In this document: positions 53,385-62,800 of the stretch, in pieces
Numbering within the stretch: position 1 is the stretch's first letter
Layout of the letters: each line of letters opens with the position of its first letter
Origin: Nannocystis bainbridge
GTDB lineage: Bacteria > Myxococcota_A > Polyangia > Nannocystales > Nannocystaceae
Assembly: GCF_028368995.1 (NCBI RefSeq)
Contig: NZ_JAQNDL010000004.1
Coordinates: 224,001 to 288,000 of the forward strand
Length of the DNA stretch: 64,000 nt
Direction: 5' to 3'
Made by a program: the position numbers and the translations under genes
Notes under the pieces: model-generated
Seen by the model: the letters and a program-made list of their open reading frames with translations, nothing else
Told to the model about the DNA's origin: nothing
Databases searched by the model: none

Positions 53385-55586
53385 TCACAGCGGGATCGAG
53401 GCGACGGGGTGGGCGAGGTCGTCGATGTGCGCGACGTGGATCATGTCGCGGGCGATCGAATAGACCCAGTCTTCCATGAACACGGACCGCTGCACCTTGG
53501 AGTTGGAGTCGGTCCACCAATTGTTACACTTGCCGCTCGCGGTCTCGGGGGTCTCCGGGGCCTCGTGCGGCACGCCGCCGAGCAGCTCGAAGCCGCCGGC
53601 GATGGTCACGCGATAGACGAGCAGGCCGCTGAAGGTCATGAGGTCGCCGAAGTCGCCGCCGCTGCCGCCGGCGCAGATCGTCATCGGCACCGCGAGCAGG
53701 TCGCGGGAGCGGAAGTAGGTGAAGGCGAGGTGATTGGTGGCAGCCTCGGAGGTGGAGCCGCGGGTGCCGATGACCTCCTTGTCGAGCACCACGGGCTGGG
53801 AGAGGTCGGTGGTGTCGATGATCTGCAGCTGGAGGCCCTCGAACCACGCGAAGTCGCCTTGATCGGCGGCGTCGTAGCCCATGGTCAGGAGGTGGTCGTC
53901 GTCGAGGATGTGCATGTAGGTCGAGAAGCCGGGGATCTTGAGCTCGCCCGCGACGCTCGGGGCGCGCGGGTCGGACAGGTCGAGGACGAACAGCGGGTCG
54001 GTCTTCTTGAAGGTGACGACGAACCCGATGTCGCCCTTGTAGCGCACGGAGCGGATGTCCTCGCTCGGGGCCAGGTGGTCGACGCGGCCCTCCTCGCGCA
54101 GCCGCGAGCCCTTCTCGCGCAGCACGATCACGGTGCTGTGCACGTCGGGGTCGGGGAGCCAGCCGCTGGTGGTGGCGACCCGCAAGGCGCCCTCGTACTC
54201 GTCCATGGCGAACTGGTTGAGGATCCGGCCCTTGACGGCGCCGCTGGCCGCGTACTCGGAGGTGGCGCCGTCGAGGGCGAACTTGTGCACGCTGGTGGCC
54301 TCGTTGACGTCGGCGGCGAGCTCGGGGAACCAGGCGGCGGACTGGGCCTTGTCGTGTCGCACGGCGAGGTACAGCGAATCCTTGGAGGCGTAGACCGGGC
54401 CGGGCCGGCTCATGATGGTGGTGGTGGCGAGGGGCGCCAGCTTGCCGACGGCGAGCGAGACCAGCGAGACGAAGGAGCGGCTGTCGCCGGTCGAGGACAA
54501 GAAGACCTCATCGCAGGCGCTGAGCGGCCCCTGCATGGTCCAGGTGACGCCGCCGAGGTGCCAGGTGTCGCGCACCGAGGGCAGGAGGTCCTTGATCGGG
54601 GCTTGCTCGATCTGCTGGAGGTTGGCGAGGCGCAGCGCCTCGAATCGCTGGAGGACGTCCTGGGTGGTGAAGCCCTGCTGGCCGAGGCCGCACCAGGCGT
54701 CGGGCAGGCTCTGGGGCCAGTAGGTCATGCCGCCGACGTCGAGCTCGGGGAACACGAGGGCGGTGTGGACGGCGTCGCCGATCCGCCGCGAGTTGAGGTA
54801 CGAGCCGTTGAACTCGATCTCGCGCACGAGGCGAGGCTTGGCCCGATCGGCGAGGTCGAGGACGGTGACGAGCAGCTTGCGGCCGTCGCCGGTGAACTCG
54901 CAATCGTAGCCGTAGGTACAGTCGGGCTCGACGGCGGCGTCGGACCAGGGATCGCTGCCGAGAGAGGGGTCGACGTACTCGAGCGAGGCGTAAATGACGG
55001 CAGTGTCGCCGTGCACGTACATCCGCTTCGGGGTGCCCTGGAGCGGGACGGAGGCGAGCTCGTGGGCCTGGTCCGCGGGCCAGGCGTCGAGGACGCGAAA
55101 GCGGCCGCCGGCGAGGATGTAGAGGTAGCTGCCGTCGTTCTTGACGAAGTCGGCCTCGTCGACGTCGGCGACCTGGGTGTTGGTTTCGGAGTAGTCGCTG
55201 GCGGCGTCGCTGCCGGTCTCCTCCTCTTCTTCTTCCTCTTCCTCCTCCTCTTCTTCCTCGCCCCAATCGCCGCAGTCGCTGGCGACGGCCTGGAGGGCCA
55301 TGGTCAGGTTGTTGTGAAGGCTGGCCTCCATCTCCTGAATGGCGGTAGCCTTGAGGGCGGTCGCCAGGTCGTCGCACGAGTCGGCGCGATCGAGGGCGGC
55401 GGCGCCCTGGCGCGGGGCGTCGGCCGGCGAGGCGTCGCCGGCGAGGGCGGGCGACGCCGGCGGGCCGAACAGGCCCTCCGCGGGCGCTCCGGCGACCGGG
55501 TCGGCAGGCGCCGGGGAGTCGCAATGGAGAGAGATTGGCGTCAGCAGCGCCAGGGTGAGTGCAGCGATTCTTCGTGGTCCACGCAT
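53385..55586 (-). CDS. Secreted beta-propeller domain protein (Beta_propel family)
   Basis: YSETNTQVADVDEADFVKNDG, ILNQFAMDEY…LRVATT and VTFKKTDPLFVLDLSDP…GELKIPGFSTYMH. Confidence 0.92.
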   Translation of the reverse strand: MRGPRRIAALTLALLTPISLHCDSPAPADPVAGAPAEGLFGPPASPALAGDASPADAPRQGAAALDRADSCDDLATALKATAIQEMEASLHNNLTMALQAVASDCGDWGEEEEEEEEEEEEEETGSDAASDYSETNTQVADVDEADFVKNDGSYLYILAGGRFRVLDAWPADQAHELASVPLQGTPKRMYVHGDTAVIYASLEYVDPSLGSDPWSDAAVEPDCTYGYDCEFTGDGRKLLVTVLDLADRAKPRLVREIEFNGSYLNSRRIGDAVHTALVFPELDVGGMTYWPQSLPDAWCGLGQQGFTTQDVLQRFEALRLANLQQIEQAPIKDLLPSVRDTWHLGGVTWTMQGPLSACDEVFLSSTGDSRSFVSLVSLAVGKLAPLATTTIMSRPGPVYASKDSLYLAVRHDKAQSAAWFPELAADVNEATSVHKFALDGATSEYAASGAVKGRILNQFAMDEYEGALRVATTSGWLPDPDVHSTVIVLREKGSRLREEGRVDHLAPSEDIRSVRYKGDIGFVVTFKKTDPLFVLDLSDPRAPSVAGELKIPGFSTYMHILDDDHLLTMGYDAADQGDFAWFEGLQLQIIDTTDLSQPVVLDKEVIGTRGSTSEAATNHLAFTYFRSRDLLAVPMTICAGGSGGDFGDLMTFSGLLVYRVTIAGGFELLGGVPHEAPETPETASGKCNNWWTDSNSKVQRSVFMEDWVYSIARDMIHVAHIDDLAHPVASIPL

Positions 55587-56081
55587 CGTGATCTCCTGCT
55601 CGAATCATCGAGCGGGGTCGAGGCGCGCGGGCGTATCAGACCGCGAGCGAGCAGCCGTTCGCCCCATTCGGCAGCGACGCGCGACCCGACCCCATTCGGC
55701 AATCGTGAGGAGGTCGGTCCTGTCGGCAAGCACGCTCGGCCACGAAAGGCGCGCGGCTGTCGTCCGGCGTACGCGTCTGCCGGCTCGCTCCTCACCGGCG
55801 GAGCGAAGGCGTCGATCTGTCGTCGAGGTCGTGTGGGATGTCCTCGGGGACAGGTCGAGAGCGGGGCGGAGAAGATGCGGAGCCGCCGCTGCGCGAGCAG
55901 GCGAGCGAGCGTCGTGGTCGGCGACGGTTCGCGTCGCGAGCGGGAGCGCGGTCGTGGAGCGCGCCTCCCCGGGTCCGCAACGGGCGTCTGGACCGGCGCA
56001 GGTAAGTGTGAGAAACATCTCAAATTAAGTGAGCCCATCCGAGAACGATTCTCGGCGAGCTCGCGACGAAGGGCGGGAACC

Positions 56082-56666
56082 ATGACCACGGGCCGCGACC
56101 CAGACCTCGACCTCTTGCAGCGCTGGCGCAGCGGCGCGGCAGCGGCCGGCAATCAATTGTGCCGGCGCTTCGAGCCGAAGCTGCGCCGCTTCTTCGCCGC
56201 CAAGGTGCAGCCCGCCGACGTCGAGGAGATGGTCCAGCAGACCTGGTTGGCGCTGACCGGGGCCTGCCGCCGGGCCGACCTGCGGCCGGAGAGCGGCGGC
56301 CTGGATGCGATTCGCACGACGTTTCGCGCGTACCTGTACGGCATCGCCCGCCACACGCTGCTCGCGTATCACCGCAAGAACTACCGCGGCGGCCGCGACT
56401 TCGATCCGGAGGTCGAGAGCCTCGAGACGCTGGCGCCGTCGCTCAGCCAGCAGCTGTCGCTGCAGCGCCGGGTCAAGCAGCTCGAGCTGGCGCTGCGGAG
56501 CCTGCCGCTCGAGCTGCAGCTGTTGACCGAGGCGCGCTACGTCGAGGAGCTGTCCGGTCCGGAGCTGGCGGAGATGTTCGCGCTGCCCGAGGGCACGGTG
56601 CGCTCGCGCCTGTCGCGGGCGCGACGCTTGATGGACGAGGCGCTCGAGCGCCTGGAGCGGAAGTAG
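56082..56666 (+). CDS. ECF RNA polymerase sigma factor
   Basis: DLDLLQRWRSG…LRRFF…VEEMVQQTW…FRAYLYGIAR (sigma2); ELAEMFALPEGTVRSRLSRAR (sigma4). Confidence 0.92.
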   Translation: MTTGRDPDLDLLQRWRSGAAAAGNQLCRRFEPKLRRFFAAKVQPADVEEMVQQTWLALTGACRRADLRPESGGLDAIRTTFRAYLYGIARHTLLAYHRKNYRGGRDFDPEVESLETLAPSLSQQLSLQRRVKQLELALRSLPLELQLLTEARYVEELSGPELAEMFALPEGTVRSRLSRARRLMDEALERLERK

Positions 56667-56674
56667 GAGAGATC

Positions 56675-59494
56675 ATGCGCGAGCCGGAGCCCATCACCGA
56701 GCACGACAGCGGCGCGAGCGATCGTTTCATGCGCCTGTTCGCCGAGCACCGCGAGCAGGCCGCGACCGCCGATGCGTCGGCCGGGGGTGCCTTCGATTTC
56801 CCGGCCGAGGACGTCGCGGCCTTCAGCGCGCTGATCGGCGACCGCTACCGGATCGAGCGCGAGCTCGGACGCGGCGGCATGGGGGTCGTCTTCCTCGGCC
56901 ACGACCATCGGCTCGAGCGCTGCGTCGCGCTCAAGGTGTTGCCGCGCGCGCACGGCGAGAGCGCGGCGCATCAGCGCCGATTCCTGCGCGAGGCGCGGAC
57001 GGTGGCCAAGCTGTCGCACCCCCACATCGTGCCGATCCTGCACGCCGAGGAGGCCGGGCCGTTCGCCTACTTCACGATGGCCTACGTCGAGGGCGAGACG
57101 CTCGCCGAGCGGATCCGCCGCGCAGGTCGCATGCCGGTCGTCGAGGTGGTGAAGGTGCTGCGCGAGGTCGCGTGGGCGCTGGCGTACTCGCACGCGTGCG
57201 GGGTGGTGCACCGCGACGTCAAGCCCGAGAACATCCTGCTCGAGCGGGCCACGGGCCGCGCGCTGGTGTCGGACTTCGGCATCGCCCAGCAGGTCGGCGA
57301 CGCGGGCATCACCGGCGCCGATCACCTGGTCGGCACGGTCCTGTTCATGAGCCCGGAGCAGGCGCAGCGCGTCGAACTCGACGGGCGCAGCGATCTCTAT
57401 TCGCTGGGGGTGGTCGGCTTCTGGCTGCTGTCCGGCAAGTATCCGTTCGCCGCCGACACGGCGCTGGCGTCGTTGCTGCAGCGCGTAAATCGGCTCGCGC
57501 CGCCGCTGCGCTCGGTCGCCCCCGATGTCGCGCCGGCGATCGCGGCGGTGATCGATCGCTGCCTCGCGCGCGCGCCGGACGACCGCGTGCGCAGCGGCGA
57601 GGAGCTGGCGGAGGCGCTCGAGCGGGCGCTGCACGGCGAGCCGAAGAGCGGCCGCGACGAGCGTGCGCTGGGCGAGGCCGAGATCGGCGCGGCGCTGCTG
57701 CAGGCCGCCGAGCTGCGGCGGATGCTCCGCGAGCACGCGGAAGCGCCGGCGCCGATCGACCGGGTCTGCCGCGCGCTGGGCGAGCAGCTCGGCGTGCCCG
57801 GCGGCGTGGCGATCGACCTGTTCGAGCGGCTCGCGCTCATGTGCCCCGGCGACGCCGACGACCTGCGCGTGCTCGCTGCGGCGCACGGGCAGCTGTTGCC
57901 AGATCCGCAGCATTCCACGGCCGCCGACCTCGGCGCCATGTTCGCGACCCGGGACGACGCCTCGCTGTTCGAGCGGCTGCTCGGCCTGAGCCGCGGCTTG
58001 CCGCTGCACCACCCGCTGGTCCAGCGCCTGCATCTGCTGGCCGCGCGCGTGCGGGCGCATCGTGACGGGGCCGACGACGGCGAGGTCGCGGCGCGCTTGT
58101 TGCTCGAGATCCGCGACCTCGCCGCGCGCCTGCTCGAGCTGCGGCGCGAGGGCTTTGGCGAGCCGGTCGTCGACCACGAGAGCGCGACGCTCGGGCTCTA
58201 CCAGGAGGTGTTGGCGGAGGTCCGCCGCAACGACGGCGTGCGGGCATCGAAGCGGCTCCTGGACCTCGCGCGGGTGCGTGGGGCCTCGCGCTCGCAGCTC
58301 GCGGCGGTCGGCGCCCTCGCCGAGCAGGCGAGCCAGCACGCCGGCGTTCATGCCGCCCGCGGGAGCGACGACGCGTGGTTCGCCTTGCTGGCCGCGCTGC
58401 TCGAGTCGGCCGGCAGCCTGGTGTCGGCGGGTCCGGACGAGCTGGCGATCACCGCGCGCACCGACGAGCTGCGACGCGGCGACCTGCAGAGGGCGCGGCG
58501 ACTGTTCCTCGCGCGCCGCGGCGAAGAGCCTCCGCGAGCGAGCGACGCGATCTTCGTCGCCGAGGCGGTGGGCAAGTCGTACGGCCGCCGCAACCGCGCC
58601 GCCGATCAGGTGCTGGGCGACGTCTCGCTGGCGCTGCATCCCGGGACCATCACCGGGGTGGTCGGGCCCAACGGCTGCGGCAAGACCACGCTGCTGCGGA
58701 TCGTCGCCGGCCAGCTCGCGCCCGATGTCGGCCGCGTCGCCTATCCGCGGCTGGATCCGCCGGGCGTCGCGCGCGGGACGACCGACTGGCAGCGGGTGCT
58801 GCCGCAGATCGGCTACGTCGCGCAGCGCCCGGAGCGGTGGTTCGGCGGCCTCGGCGACAACCTGCACCGCTGGGCCGCGCTGCACGGGGTGGTCGGCGAG
58901 GACAACGCGATCGAGGTCGAGTTCTACCTCAACCGCCTCGACCTGCTGCGTTACCGCGACGCCCAGTGGCACGAGCTGTCGGGCGGCTATCGCATGCGCT
59001 TCGAGCTCGCGCGCGTCATGGTCGCGCGCCCGCGCCTGCTGGTGCTGGACGAGCCGCTGGCGCCGCTCGACATCAATTCGCAGGAGACCTTCCTGCGGGA
59101 CCTCCGCGACCTCGCCGACATGGACGGGCAACAGCTGCCGATCCTGCTCAGCTCGCAGCACATCGTCGAGGTCGAGTCGATCGCGGACACGCTGTTGTGC
59201 CTGCACCAGTCGGGTCGGCCGCGCTTCTGCGGCCCGGCCCGCGCAGTGGCGGGTCGCGGCGACGAGCGGGTGTACGAGCTCGGCGGCGCGATCTCGCAGG
59301 ACCTGCTCGACGCGGTGCGCCAGCAGTTCGCGCTCACGGCCCATCGCGCGGGCGAGCGCTGGATCGTGCGAGTGCCGGCAGATGTCCCGGAGGACAGGTT
59401 GCTGCGGGCGCTGCTGGCCCGCCACGGCAGCGTCGATTACTTCCGCAACATCACGCAATCTTGCGTGCGTTTTTTCAGGGGAGATGCGTCATGA
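56675..59494 (+). CDS. Hanks-type Ser/Thr kinase fused via a helical region to an ABC-transporter ATPase
   Basis: AGGAG RBS. Kinase motifs LGRGGMGVV, VALK, HRDVKPEN, DFG, GTVLFMSPEQ and DLYSLG; ABC motifs GPNGCGKTT, YVAQ, LSGGY and LLVLDEP. Single uninterrupted frame. Confidence 0.9.
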   Translation: MREPEPITEHDSGASDRFMRLFAEHREQAATADASAGGAFDFPAEDVAAFSALIGDRYRIERELGRGGMGVVFLGHDHRLERCVALKVLPRAHGESAAHQRRFLREARTVAKLSHPHIVPILHAEEAGPFAYFTMAYVEGETLAERIRRAGRMPVVEVVKVLREVAWALAYSHACGVVHRDVKPENILLERATGRALVSDFGIAQQVGDAGITGADHLVGTVLFMSPEQAQRVELDGRSDLYSLGVVGFWLLSGKYPFAADTALASLLQRVNRLAPPLRSVAPDVAPAIAAVIDRCLARAPDDRVRSGEELAEALERALHGEPKSGRDERALGEAEIGAALLQAAELRRMLREHAEAPAPIDRVCRALGEQLGVPGGVAIDLFERLALMCPGDADDLRVLAAAHGQLLPDPQHSTAADLGAMFATRDDASLFERLLGLSRGLPLHHPLVQRLHLLAARVRAHRDGADDGEVAARLLLEIRDLAARLLELRREGFGEPVVDHESATLGLYQEVLAEVRRNDGVRASKRLLDLARVRGASRSQLAAVGALAEQASQHAGVHAARGSDDAWFALLAALLESAGSLVSAGPDELAITARTDELRRGDLQRARRLFLARRGEEPPRASDAIFVAEAVGKSYGRRNRAADQVLGDVSLALHPGTITGVVGPNGCGKTTLLRIVAGQLAPDVGRVAYPRLDPPGVARGTTDWQRVLPQIGYVAQRPERWFGGLGDNLHRWAALHGVVGEDNAIEVEFYLNRLDLLRYRDAQWHELSGGYRMRFELARVMVARPRLLVLDEPLAPLDINSQETFLRDLRDLADMDGQQLPILLSSQHIVEVESIADTLLCLHQSGRPRFCGPARAVAGRGDERVYELGGAISQDLLDAVRQQFALTAHRAGERWIVRVPADVPEDRLLRALLARHGSVDYFRNITQSCVRFFRGDAS

Positions 59495-60765
59495 GAGGGA
59501 CCTATTCACGATATCGAATGGTGGCCGCGTGGGGGCGGCTCGACCGCTATTTGTTGCTCAACCGGCCGCACCTATGGACGATGCGCTTTCATGGGACGGT
59601 GGCGCTGGGGCTGCTGGCCACCGCCGCGGCGCTGGTCATCGCGGCGATGGTGCCGGTCGCGGTCGACAGCGTGCCGAGCCTGCGGCCGTTCTTTCTGTCG
59701 TTGCTGGCGCTGAGCACGATCGGATCGCTCTATTGGACGTGGCTGCAATTCCGGGTGCTGCGCCACGTCAGCGTGCGCGGCCGCGACGGCGGCGGGCTGA
59801 CGTTCGTGCTCAACCTGGTGTGCCTGGTGGCGATTCTCCTGCCGCCGCTGGCGGCGACGTCGCTGCTGCGCGCGCGCGTGGTCGAGCGGGTGCCGCAGGC
59901 GCAATATCAGGCGGATATGCGGAGCTTCAACGAGGGGGTGAATGCGCTGAGGGCGTTCGATCGTCCGCGGCAGACGTATCGCTGCTCGCCGAGGGACGAG
60001 GAGCGCATGTTCGGCAAGGATTTCTGCGCGGGACCGATGCCGTCGCCAGCGACCCTCGTGCCTGCGGAGTTCGTGGCGCTCGAGCGCGATGGTGACGAGT
60101 TCAACCGGATCGACTGCGACGAGTGCGGCGCCGTGAACACACGGCTGGAGGCATTCACGGCGGTGGTCGCCCGCTACGGCGAGTCGCGCGCCGGGGCCAA
60201 CCTGAGCAACCTGCAGGTCGCGCACGGGCTCGGCGCGATCGAGACCTATCCGAGCCGATCTCACCTCTTCTCGGTGTGGTTCATGGCCGTGATCGCGGCC
60301 ACTGGCCTCACGATCGCCCGCACGTGCTCGCTGCGCCTGCTGCTCGAATCGGCCGCCGCGCTCGGGGCGGTGTGGGTCGCGCTGACGTTCCTCAGCAGCG
60401 CCTACGCGGCCCACTCGGGGTTGTCGTCGCTGCTCACGGTGGCGGTGTGCGCGGGCGCGCTGCCGGTCGCGGTGCTGGGCCTCCTGACCCGTCCGACCGG
60501 GCTTCAGCTGCGCCTGCTGGTCGCAGCCTGCTTGCTCGCGCCGGCGGCCACGTTGATCGCCGGGATGGCGATCGCCACGTCGCGCGACCTGTTCGATCAC
60601 ACCGACGTAGTGGAGTCGATGAACTACTTCGCCACGCCGTGGTCGAGCCACGGCGATGGGTTCTTCTTCGGGATGATCGGGCTGACCACGCTGGTGGCGA
60701 TCGCGGCGCTGGCGATGTTCCGCCCGGTGGCGCAGCGCATGGCCGCGATCCCGCGGCGACGCTGA
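59491..60765 (+). CDS. Polytopic membrane protein, probable ABC permease partner
   Basis: ATGA overlap with the kinase-ABC gene; about 8 hydrophobic segments; a large loop with 4 Cys including CDEC. Confidence 0.8.
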   Translation: MRGTYSRYRMVAAWGRLDRYLLLNRPHLWTMRFHGTVALGLLATAAALVIAAMVPVAVDSVPSLRPFFLSLLALSTIGSLYWTWLQFRVLRHVSVRGRDGGGLTFVLNLVCLVAILLPPLAATSLLRARVVERVPQAQYQADMRSFNEGVNALRAFDRPRQTYRCSPRDEERMFGKDFCAGPMPSPATLVPAEFVALERDGDEFNRIDCDECGAVNTRLEAFTAVVARYGESRAGANLSNLQVAHGLGAIETYPSRSHLFSVWFMAVIAATGLTIARTCSLRLLLESAAALGAVWVALTFLSSAYAAHSGLSSLLTVAVCAGALPVAVLGLLTRPTGLQLRLLVAACLLAPAATLIAGMAIATSRDLFDHTDVVESMNYFATPWSSHGDGFFFGMIGLTTLVAIAALAMFRPVAQRMAAIPRRR

Positions 60766-60826: not shown

Positions 60827-62800
60827 TCAGGGCGTCTTGCAGATGTACGGCCGCGGCGAGTCGCAGGGCAGGTCGTTCCACAGGCCGGCGGACCAGGCGG
60901 GGAGGTTGGCGCAGTCCTCCTCGCCGGCGTTGTTGGGCTCGCCCTCGTTCCAGGCGGTGAAGCCGAGCGCGGTGCCGTCGGTCCACACGAAATCGTCCTC
61001 GCTGGCGATGTCGTTGAGGCCGATCCACCAGTCGCTGTTGGCGACCATGAACGCCTCGGCGGCGGCCCAGTCCTGGGTGGCCTGGTCGGGGATCGACAGC
61101 AGGTGGCCGCCCTGGGTCACGCAGTCGGCCTCGGCCTGGGCGAAGGGCAAGGCGACGAAGCAGAGCTGGGCGGTGCCGGGGCCGGGCAGGTCCTTCTCGA
61201 CGCAGTGGGGGCACAGGGGGTCGTCGTCCCAGACGCCGTCGCAGTCGTCGTCGTCGAGGTCGCAGGCCTCCTGGGCGCCGGGGTGGACGTCGGGGTCGTT
61301 GTCGTCGCAGTCGTCGGTGCAGGCGGAGAAGCCGTCGCCGTCGAGGTCGACGTCGCTGGGGATCGTGCAAGCGAGGCCGGCCTGGACAGAGGCGGCGCGC
61401 TGCATGAAGAAGGCGACGTTGCCGGCGATCTCGTTGGTGTTGTCGCCGTCGCTGCACTCCTTGCGCGGGTCGGCGGCGACGGCCGGGGCGATGCTGGCCC
61501 CGAGCTCGGCGGCGGCGCCGGCGAGGTCGAGGGCGTCGACGCGGGCGAGCACGTGGTCGAAGCTGTCGGCGAGCTGCTCGCGGCACGGCTGCGAGGCGGC
61601 GCACATCTGCGCCAGCCGCCCGTCGCCGCCGAACGGGTCGAGGTGGTCGCGCAAGATCTGGTCGATGCCCCACGGCATGAAGGTCCACAGCGCGCCGTCC
61701 TCCTGCGGGCGATGGACGTAGTAGTTGTTGCGGGTCCAGGCGTAGCCGTCCCAGTGGCCGAGGTAGATCTCGGTGGCGGCGAAATCGAGGTAGCGCCCGA
61801 GGTCGAGGACAGCGGCGACGTCGCTGGTAAAGGCGGCGGGGTCGAGCATGCCGTCGAGCGCGGTGGCGAAGTCGTAGAGGTCGGCGAATTCGAGGTCGTC
61901 GCCGTTGTCCTGATCGAAGGAGGGCACGAGGTCGGTGCGGATGTCGCTGCCGTAGGCGCCCTCGTAGATGCTGCCCTTGTCGCTGCCGTACCAGTGGTCG
62001 AGGTAGGGCTCGTTGTCGACGGACTCGACGGCGGTGTAGAGGCCGTAGGGCTCGCCGTTGACGCGCACGACGACGTGGCCGGCGCGGGGGGCCGCGATGC
62101 CGACGTCGCGGAAGAGCGAGTAGCCGAGGATCTCGCGCTGCATGCTGCAGTCCTGGACCATGTTGTTGACGGCGAGCTTCTCGAGGCCCAAGAGCCGCTG
62201 GTCGTCGACGTTGCGGTCGAAATTGAGGAGGAAGGCGGCCTTCTGATCGAGGGTGCGATAGGAGCCGTAGTTGCCCTTGAGGCGCACGCCGATCTCGGTC
62301 AGCTCGTAGACCTGGCCGTCGATCTTGGCCACGAGGTCGCCCTTGGTGTACTTCTTGCCATCGGCGTCGAGAGCGGCGATCGCCTCGTCGGAGAGGGTGA
62401 GGTCGAACTCGGCCATGGCGCCGAAGGCGAACAGCGGCTCGGCCTCGAGGTAGGGGTCCGGATCGCCGGTGGTGCCGCTGGTGGTGTCGGGTTCCTGCGT
62501 GGTCGCGGTGGCGTCGGTGGTGGTCGCGGTGGTGGTCGACGTCGCGTCGGTGGTGCTGGTGGTCACCGCGTCGGTGGTCGAGGTGTCGGTGGTGCCGGTG
62601 GTCGGGACGTCGGTGGTCGAGGTGGTGGTGCCGGGAGTGCCGGTGGTCGGCGCGGTCTCACTGGCGTCGGAGGTGGCGTCCGTCGTGGTGGCGTCGGTGG
62701 TGGTGGCGTCCGTGGTGGCGTCGGTGGTCTGAGCCGTGGGGCTGGTGCAGGCGGCGGCGAGGAGGAGCGGGACGGAGCGGTAAACGGCAGTGCGGGCCAT
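60827..62800 (-). CDS. Lipoprotein: CotH-type atypical kinase, MopE-like repeat and C-type lectin domain
   Basis: Lipobox LAAAC; CotH motifs IGVRLKGN, LAVNNMVQD, VRVNGEPYGLY, HWDGY…NNYY and FMPWGID; DCDD…HPGAQEACDLDDDDCDG; CTLD WIGLND…EPNN…EDC…WNDLPC…YICK. Confidence 0.9.
   Translation of the reverse strand: MARTAVYRSVPLLLAAACTSPTAQTTDATTDATTTDATTTDATSDASETAPTTGTPGTTTSTTDVPTTGTTDTSTTDAVTTSTTDATSTTTATTTDATATTQEPDTTSGTTGDPDPYLEAEPLFAFGAMAEFDLTLSDEAIAALDADGKKYTKGDLVAKIDGQVYELTEIGVRLKGNYGSYRTLDQKAAFLLNFDRNVDDQRLLGLEKLAVNNMVQDCSMQREILGYSLFRDVGIAAPRAGHVVVRVNGEPYGLYTAVESVDNEPYLDHWYGSDKGSIYEGAYGSDIRTDLVPSFDQDNGDDLEFADLYDFATALDGMLDPAAFTSDVAAVLDLGRYLDFAATEIYLGHWDGYAWTRNNYYVHRPQEDGALWTFMPWGIDQILRDHLDPFGGDGRLAQMCAASQPCREQLADSFDHVLARVDALDLAGAAAELGASIAPAVAADPRKECSDGDNTNEIAGNVAFFMQRAASVQAGLACTIPSDVDLDGDGFSACTDDCDDNDPDVHPGAQEACDLDDDDCDGVWDDDPLCPHCVEKDLPGPGTAQLCFVALPFAQAEADCVTQGGHLLSIPDQATQDWAAAEAFMVANSDWWIGLNDIASEDDFVWTDGTALGFTAWNEGEPNNAGEEDCANLPAWSAGLWNDLPCDSPRPYICKTP

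Follow-up and report, generated by a model that had tools for sequence, protein, structure and literature searches.

A three-gene operon of Nannocystis bainbridge places a Hanks kinase-ABC ATPase fusion between a sigma factor of the ECF type and one polytopic membrane protein: a candidate link from a membrane ATPase to gene regulation

The 64,000-nt stretch of DNA analysed here (the window; positions 224,001-288,000 of contig NZ_JAQNDL010000004.1, assembly GCF_028368995.1; G+C ~70%) comes from the soil myxobacterium Nannocystis bainbridge. It carries a three-gene operon encoding an extracytoplasmic function (ECF) sigma factor (P0001), a 939-aa protein in which a Hanks-type Ser/Thr kinase is fused to an ATP-binding cassette (ABC) ATPase (P0002), and a 424-aa polytopic membrane protein (P0003). 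As a preliminary description of the locus had proposed, the genes are co-directional, with an 8-bp gap between the first and second and an ATGA overlap between the second and third (Table 1): the TAG stop of the sigma gene is followed by 8 bases including GGAGAG and then by the ATG of the fusion gene, the TGA of which overlaps the ATG of the membrane-protein gene (gcgtcATGAgag). Because both flanking genes lie on the opposite strand, we take these three genes as the operon unit. Third-position G+C is 0.90-0.94 in all three genes and 0.93 in the fusion gene, where a single frame keeps to 0.91 or more through kinase, linker and ABC domain; this steadiness indicates that there is no change of frame in this assembly. 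Further, a 939-aa protein identical to P0002 (P0130) is present in a separate assembly and three full-length homologues exist, which argues against a fusion made by assembly. The operon and the fusion are almost certainly real.

Table 1. Features of the operon and its surroundings, with positions in the window
Feature	Position	Strand	Remark
ECF (group 4) sigma factor P0001, 194 aa	56082..56666	+	Pfam and NCBIfam matches
Fusion P0002, 939 aa: N-terminal tail, Hanks kinase, helical linker, ABC ATPase, C-terminal domain	56675..59494	+	
PknB-like Ser/Thr kinase domain, residues 58-320	56846..57634	+	Pkinase match
All-helical linker, residues 330-625	57662..58549	+	AF2 model
ABC nucleotide-binding domain (626-862) and C-terminal domain (863-939)	58550..59491	+	ABC_tran match
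Polytopic membrane protein P0003, 424 aa	59491..60765	+	presumed membrane partner of the nucleotide-binding domain
P0003 N-terminal motif and TM1-3	59530-59868	+	
P0003 extracytoplasmic four-Cys loop	59869-60264	+	
P0003 TM4-8	60265-60732	+	
Intergenic region 5' of the sigma gene	55587..56081	.	495 bp; shared with the divergent Beta_propel gene
Upstream neighbour, Beta_propel protein	53385-55586	opposite strand	
Downstream convergent neighbour, CotH and Lectin_C	60827-62800	-	

Pfam matches, catalytic motifs and an AlphaFold2 (AF2) model agree that P0002 consists, as described before, of a complete Hanks kinase, a helical linker of ~300 aa and a complete ABC ATPase, with no hydrophobic or transmembrane (TM) segment. 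The Pkinase match covers residues 58-306 (56846-57592, E 5.7e-45) and the ABC_tran match residues 648-796 (58616-59062, E 1.7e-24). The kinase domain also matches solved PknB and PknA chains (E ~1e-49) and contains the complete Hanks-type motif set, namely the Gly-rich loop (GRGGMGVV, 65), the VAxK Lys (VALK, 84-87; K87), HRD (HRDVKPEN, 179), DFG (200) and an APE-like motif (SPE, 226). The six-motif set of ABC ATPases is complete as well and fully canonical in the window protein: Walker A GPNGCGKT (664), Q-loop VAQR (717), signature LSGGY (768), Walker B LLVLDEP with the catalytic Glu (788-794), D-loop LAPLD (795-799) and H-loop SQH (829). Every kinase and ABC catalytic motif is intact not only in P0002 but also in its relatives P0004 and P0127, and we consider it highly probable that the kinase is active. 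A motif ahead of the kinase domain, FMxxFAxxRE, in the N-terminal tail (56675-56845), is likewise kept in P0002, P0004 and P0127 and perhaps forms a helix for docking or regulation.

The linker is modelled as helices only (334-613), with pLDDT of 70-87 for ~420-585 and low values for 330-415. It has no match in Pfam at E up to 10, none among PDB sequences and no usable look-alike in Atlas; a word-index search with the linker alone returned the query only, its low complexity having swamped the index. It is, however, homologous to the regions ahead of the nucleotide-binding domain (NBD) in P0145 and P0149, and in every relative of this ABC subfamily its C-terminal part stands ahead of the NBD. 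We considered EAD11 as an identity for this helical region on account of one sub-threshold match in P0145 (E 0.0029), but a direct comparison failed to bear it out.

The combination of Pkinase and ABC_tran recurs in P0004, P0005 and P0127, and the fusion is thus not a singleton, which the preliminary description had named as a ground for refuting its proposal: it has conserved relatives with intact motifs. Among the best 120 listed matches of a word-index search, three carried both domains (the query, P0004 and P0005) and the remaining 117 were kinases only. P0004, from a metagenome, has 953 aa and is 54% identical over 100% coverage; P0005 is from N. radixulma (823 aa), and a cluster look-up added P0127 of Nannocystis sp. 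SCPEA4 (943 aa) and the identical P0130. Two Nannocystis genomes and one metagenome therefore hold full-length relatives, with identities of 54-59%, and the three fusion families can be aligned over their full length, linker included. P0005 and P0127 share one 90% cluster, and the annotated start of P0005 lies inside the kinase domain, so that the protein as annotated is without Gly-rich loop and catalytic Lys; this short 5' end could reflect a mis-called start or a damaged gene.

When 1.84 billion representatives were searched and domains were mapped for the best 150 matches, a single one had the full kinase-linker-ABC architecture (P0004), 145 were kinases only, two had linker and ABC ATPase without kinase (P0145 and P0149, 40-42% identical), one was a fragment (P0176) and one combined a kinase with the same ABC subfamily through a different middle part (P0255). 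This list was crowded by tandem kinases, and ABC-only members below ~300 bits could not appear in it, so that counts for the ABC subfamily are lower bounds. The exact architecture is rare, amounting to about one 50%-identity cluster, yet it is no singleton. In the fragment P0176 (243 aa, metagenome), the last ~25 residues resemble the C-terminus of the P0003 family and are joined to the end of the NBD C-terminal domain; a deletion or a chimeric assembly across both genes could explain it.

The N-terminal partner of the ABC module varies among these relatives: a Hanks kinase in the Nannocystis group, a helical region only in P0145 and P0149, a short helical N-terminus in a cyanobacterial (Tolypothrix) protein described below, and Pkinase-TIR_2-nSTAND1 in P0255, a 1106-aa metagenomic protein whose ABC domain belongs to the same subfamily as that of the window (E 4e-62). 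From these domain comparisons, the kinase is one of several N-terminal add-ons to the ABC module. P0255 has the look of an immune-type multidomain protein that ends in a transporter-type NBD. Its kinase matches that of the window at E 1e-32 only, compared with ~1e-96 for unfused kinases of Gemmatimonadota and ~1e-50 for those of Planctomycetota, and because it is so distant, a kinase has joined the ABC module either on at least two occasions or in the distant past. The closest relatives of the window kinase domain are kinases of ~600 aa from Gemmatimonadota (55-62% identity, compared with 36-45% for the other top matches), and the domain may have been exchanged between phyla.

P0003 was described as polytopic with a Cys-containing loop, and this holds. 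The protein has ~8 hydrophobic helices, with seven Lys/Arg at the N-terminus and four at the C-terminus, and a loop of ~130 residues (127-258) after TM3 that the topology puts outside the cytoplasm. Four cysteines of this loop (C165, C179, C209 and C212, including a CxxC) are invariant in all six family members, which also have in common an N-terminal motif, LDRxLLLNRPxLWTMRxH, and a strongly conserved TM2-TM3 loop, LRHVSVRGxDGGG. Searches of Pfam, NCBIfam and PADLOC assigned P0003 to no family, and no permease family was among the matches. Its Atlas model resembles unannotated clusters of Bacteroidota, one of them auto-named 'putative ABC transporter permease' (TM-score 0.53-0.63), a likeness of models that we treat as a lead only. 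The N. radixulma orthologue, P0128, is named 'DUF1109 domain-containing protein' in UniRef; this label was not reproduced, none of the six family members matching the DUF1109 (NrsF) Pfam model at E up to 10.

Based on consecutive accession numbers of the fusion and membrane proteins (MDC0672213/MDC0672212 in N. radixulma and MCY1059257/MCY1059256 in Nannocystis sp. SCPEA4), the two genes are adjacent in two Nannocystis genomes. The pair also occurs outside this group. A tblastn search of plasmids with linker and ABC ATPase gave three identical records (Tolypothrix PCC 7601, Tolypothrix PCC 7712 and Microchaete diplosiphon), which we count as one independent case; plasmid searches with the Tolypothrix proteins returned the same three records only, and those with P0003 returned no match. 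The Tolypothrix ABC protein, P0280 (463 aa), is 39% identical to residues 604-934 of P0002 (E 2e-76), C-terminal tail included, and 3' of its gene, with a 4-bp overlap, lies the gene of a 538-aa polytopic protein, P0279. The N-terminal 3-TM part of P0279 matches P0003 (BLASTP E 4e-10; hhalign 74%, E 2.8e-5), the LLNxPxLW motif included, and its middle domain is unrelated to that of P0003 and has no cysteines. Judging from these matches, members of the NBD subfamily and of the membrane family are found side by side in two phyla, the domain after TM3 being variable. The NBD and the membrane protein very probably form a complex. We found the motif kept where no sigma factor is annotated nearby, and we therefore read the N-terminal motif of P0003 as a putative element for NBD docking rather than for sigma binding. 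The three-gene signalling system proposed in the preliminary description consequently stands in part: its NBD does have a conserved, translationally coupled polytopic partner, but the ABC-membrane pair forms a cassette in its own right, which is also found where there is neither a kinase nor an annotated sigma nearby. The cassette itself seems to be unannotated and hints at a wider family of ABC-based sensors.

The company that this cassette keeps raises the possibility that it belongs to an NTPase-centred conflict or immunity system of multicellular bacteria, in which the ABC-membrane pair would sense attack on the envelope, the kinase would be an effector acting on many targets and the sigma factor would be the transcriptional arm. 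P0255 joins the ABC subfamily to TIR_2 and nSTAND1, both described in such systems, some of which also include ECF sigma genes and S/T/Y kinases according to the accessible part of the source (PMC8195603). Moreover, the Tolypothrix copy is located on a mobilizable plasmid, near genes for a PIN protein, a restriction endonuclease and an integrase, and convergent to it is a gene for an EAD11-trypsin-like peptidase (L062 8810-9895 (-), EAD11 E 4.6e-15). Direct comparison, however, detected no sequence link between this peptidase and the cassette proteins, and the weak EAD11 match of P0145 mentioned above is below cut-off. In P0002 itself no TIR, STAND or EAD domain scores above threshold; such STAND/EAD features exceed it only in P0255 and in the neighbour of the Tolypothrix cassette. 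PADLOC matches are limited to generic kinase and ABC models, no defence or mobile genes are recognisable around the operon, and the word 'ABC' is absent from the portions available to us of two papers on conflict systems (Kaur et al. 2020, 2021, eLife). We regard this explanation, which overlaps with the one developed below, as improbable.

P0001 belongs to the ECF (group 4) sigma-70 factors. It scores above the cut-offs of Sigma70_r2, Sigma70_r4_2 and Sigma70_ECF in Pfam and of TIGR02937 (61.6 bits, cut-off 42.9), and it can be aligned end to end with RpoE of E. coli. Its region 2.2 reads DVEEMVQQT, with D46-V-E-E49 aligning with DVPD of RpoE. In ECF43 sigmas, according to the parts of the sources at hand, the acidic DAED/DxxD of region 2.2 is lost and uncharged residues plus a phospho-Thr (QTTA/STTA) are found instead (PMC13147305, PMC8999054). 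P0001 does not share this hallmark loss of acidic residues, and the EcfP-type logic invoked in the preliminary description, by which the sigma factor is inactive until phosphorylated, is accordingly not evident. The gene context, on the other hand, is ECF43-like: the kinase gene starts 8 bp downstream, and the absence of an anti-sigma gene, as noted before, is upheld in that no Pfam or NCBIfam anti-sigma domain was detected in any of the three operon proteins.

A scan of genome contigs with the fusion alignment picked up kinase-domain patterns and yielded 61 loci of ordinary kinases; the window genome and the Nannocystis loci are not among them. Relatives of the linker or of the membrane protein were found in none of these loci, three of which gave weak generic ABC matches only. 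Of 60 kinase loci, 11, every one from Planctomycetota, have an ECF-like gene immediately upstream in the same orientation, and all seven upstream genes tested were confirmed by Pfam. ECF-kinase adjacency, another element of the preliminary description, is hence common among related kinases. The string VQQT of region 2.2 is common to P0001 and seven of ten aligned planctomycete sigmas (six have exactly LVQQT), with D46 and Q52 invariant throughout the alignment. Neither P0001 nor any of the ten planctomycete sigmas has the Glu of the usual 'QE' (of the ten, seven have Q there and three have S, L or T), and the next residue is Thr in P0001 (QQT; Thr at position 54) and in eight of the ten. Outside ECF43, kinase-linked ECF groups keep the acidic motif, and Ser/Thr residues in or near it are possible targets, as far as the accessible text goes (PMC8999054). 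The Ser/Thr pattern of region 2.2 thus lends weak support to kinase control of the sigma factor, and the gap of only 8 bp argues against an incidental adjacency. We only infer the step from kinase to sigma, and give the sigma factor a little less than an even chance of being a substrate.

A sigma factor that looks intrinsically competent, with its acidic region 2.2, would need restraint, and this is the starting point of a different explanation, in which P0003 is the missing anti-sigma factor: the polytopic protein with its four invariant extracytoplasmic cysteines would tether the sigma factor, and the kinase-ABC protein would free it by phosphorylation or by an ATP-driven change. NrsF/DUF1109 holds sigma F at the membrane in Caulobacter, and DUF1109, the UniRef name of the N. 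radixulma orthologue, is what we take to be this NrsF family of membrane anti-sigma factors. Apart from that label, neither DUF1109/NrsF nor any other anti-sigma Pfam model matches any of the six family members at E up to 10. Further, the cytoplasmic N-terminal motif, shared with the Tolypothrix homologue, fits NBD docking better, and the P0003 gene overlaps the gene of the NBD and not that of the sigma factor. We consider an anti-sigma role of P0003 very unlikely.

Cumulatively, these observations lead us to propose that a membrane-anchored ABC sensor switch controls the fused kinase, with the sigma factor as the probable output, a chain that we hold as a whole to be possible though short of probable. 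The 8-TM protein, probably as a dimer, would dock the NBDs of two fusion proteins and thereby place two PknB-like kinase domains, tied to the NBDs by the helical linker, at the membrane. A signal would be perceived by the membrane protein, with the four-Cys (CxxC) extracytoplasmic domain as candidate receiver or else within the membrane, and would alter the balance between the closed and open states of the NBD pair, which depends on ATP. On closure, the two kinase domains would meet and undergo trans-autophosphorylation; kinases of the PknB type are known to be activated as dimers. The active kinase would phosphorylate cytoplasmic targets, most likely among them the co-transcribed ECF sigma factor, and transcription would be altered. 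That NBD closure activates the kinase is a more tentative proposal than the chain's other parts, and the direction of signalling from ABC to kinase is, like the docking of the NBDs, the sigma factor as substrate and the nature of the signal, what we infer. We favour the ABC-membrane pair as input and the kinase as output because the C-terminal position in STAND-type proteins is normally that of the sensor. The accessible part of the literature on conflict systems describes a layout of effector, NTPase and variable C-terminus (PMC8195603).

Several points weigh against this proposal. The retained D46 and E49 imply that the sigma factor need not depend on phosphorylation. Among the kinases of Gemmatimonadota, the closest relatives, none of the five upstream open reading frames tested encodes a sigma factor and none in loci L001-L014 is sigma-like. 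Kinases and ECF sigmas abound in myxobacterial genomes, so that an adjacency by chance becomes more likely. No sigma factor or kinase is annotated near the Tolypothrix cassette, which must therefore work without both. As for structure, the kinase domain is poor in the AF2 model of the fusion, which holds no inter-domain information (pTM 0.38) and hence permits no structural statement on dimerisation. The model of P0003 is poor, too (mean pLDDT 57.5, with only the loop domain at 70-89), and it resembles no solved ABC membrane domain, none of 324 listed matches in the PDB reaching E <= 0.001, a Foldseek result that is uninformative because of the low confidence of the model.

Keeping in mind that nothing is missing from the catalytic set of the NBD, the Glu of Walker B and the His of the H-loop included, one must also weigh a scheme in which the transporter is the output. 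Here, NBD and membrane protein would make a working ABC exporter or mechanotransducer, which the fused kinase would tune by phosphorylating itself or the linker, and the sigma factor, controlled elsewhere, would merely drive or autoregulate the operon; the acidic region 2.2 of the sigma factor suits this scheme. In Foldseek, the NBD with its C-terminal domain of ~75 residues is nearest to NBDs of real transporters with C-terminal regulatory domains, namely those of the ABCA family, TM_1403 (TM-score 0.78 by target) and NosF, and to LptB, and the closest NCBIfam models are exporter-type ATPases, all below their cut-offs. The cassette also occurs without the kinase, so that its function needs none. 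The scheme would resemble the action of PknF on Rv1747, an ABC transporter whose control by a kinase is established, as the available part of the source reports (PMC6213207). Against this, no FHA or other phospho-binding domain was found in P0002 by Pfam, and the membrane protein belongs to no permease family. The transport coupling envisaged in the preliminary description has likewise found no backing, as nothing shows transport. In P0255, moreover, the same ABC subfamily occupies the C-terminus of a TIR-STAND protein, which is the usual place of a sensor module. Finally, the signature is degenerate in P0149 (LSEGY) and P0255 (ISVGF) and the H-loop in P0280 (SQN), so that a switch fits better than a pump. 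We therefore judge the transporter scheme unlikely and continue to prefer an ABC sensor switch that acts through the kinase.

Extending the latter, the ABC subfamily and its 8-TM partner could form an unrecognised class of membrane sensor switch, in which NBD closure would signal rather than transport and which would have been plugged repeatedly into different outputs: a Hanks kinase with an ECF sigma factor, a kinase-TIR-STAND protein and maybe separate cyanobacterial partners. This generalisation is somewhat doubtful. If it were true, the window operon would be the first case of an ABC module serving as the input domain of a eukaryote-like kinase.

Regarding the surroundings of the operon, the product of the convergent downstream gene combines a CotH kinase domain with a MopE-type metal-binding motif and a C-type lectin domain. 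The operon promoter is presumably located in the intergenic region 5' of the sigma gene; no sigma-70-like promoter site was found there, and none of four simple ECF-like promoter patterns matched upstream of the sigma gene. The same region contains a direct repeat, CCCCATTCGGCA, at 55662 and 55690 (55662-55701), and a palindrome, GAGAACGATTCTC, at 56041 (56041-56053), both possible candidate sites for a regulator. A terminator-like hairpin with a T-run at 59452-59476 falls within the last codons of the fusion gene and is probably coincidental, since the T-run corresponds to the codons of the conserved FFR in the C-terminal tail.

A full-text literature search turned up no paper on a Hanks kinase-ABC NBD fusion, in line with the preliminary description, which knew of none that had been characterised; the ABC ATPase classification of Krishnan et al. 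lies outside the coverage of this search. The term 'ABC' does not occur in the accessible portion of a preprint presenting an atlas of bacterial kinases, and a review of Hanks kinases, in the part available, refers to ABC proteins only for Rv1747, as a substrate (PMC6213207). The architecture looks like a rare, undescribed means of coupling gene regulation to a membrane ATPase. The family seems to be small and restricted to few lineages, and its wider significance rests on experiments. It would offer a clean system for learning how bacterial Ser/Thr kinases without a receptor are switched on, the mutations that separate ATP binding, hydrolysis and phosphotransfer being well understood.

Among known systems, the operon resembles EcfP/PknT of Vibrio parahaemolyticus and EcfK/PknS of Xanthomonas citri in that an ECF sigma gene adjoins that of an intact PknB-like Hanks kinase and no anti-sigma gene can be recognised. 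The kinases of these two systems span the membrane, however (for PknS, according to the part of the source at hand, PMC13147305), whereas the window kinase, joined to an ABC ATPase, is without any TM segment. The ECF43 sigmas differ in having QTTA/STTA with its phospho-Thr where the window sigma has DVEE. Planctomycete groups ECF59-62 and ECF217 (PMC7826278, PMC8999054) are alike in layout, with a sigma gene followed after a short gap by a gene for a kinase whose domain is 36-39% identical, and in region 2.2, where DxxD/E is kept and Q stands for E in 'QE' followed by Thr; this likeness is one of layout, kinase domain and region 2.2. In none of the 61 loci does the kinase carry a domain related to the ABC ATPase or the linker of the window protein.

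From the side of the transporter, the nearest parallels are BceAB-BceRS and PknF-Rv1747. In the former, a complex of ABC ATPase and membrane protein, with the FtsX-domain permease BceB, acts as flux sensor for an intramembrane-sensing histidine kinase that controls transcription. A sensor role of this kind is what we propose for the ABC-membrane complex of the window, but in the present case the NBD has a Ser/Thr kinase covalently attached, an ECF sigma factor serves as regulator, and no FtsX or histidine kinase domain was found in the three proteins. In Mycobacterium tuberculosis, the Hanks kinase PknF and the ABC transporter Rv1747 are functionally linked as well, so far as the accessible text tells (PMC6213207). 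They are separate proteins coupled through the FHA domains of the transporter, and a sigma factor is not involved; the proteins of the operon have no FHA domain. STAND/NLR-like proteins of multicellular bacteria share the modular arrangement, in which an effector or signalling domain at the N-terminus stands ahead of an NTPase, and P0255 has TIR and nSTAND1 ahead of the same ABC subfamily, but the window protein contains neither STAND nor TIR, and ABC ATPases are not mentioned in the available portions of those reports (Kaur et al. 2020, 2021, eLife). Having compared the defining features, we conclude that the operon is a member of neither the ECF43 nor the Bce family. It rather combines known ideas, the coupling of ECF sigmas to Hanks kinases and the use of ABC complexes as sensors for kinases, and the covalent fusion would unite Hanks-ECF adjacency and the ABC sensing known from histidine kinases in one polypeptide.

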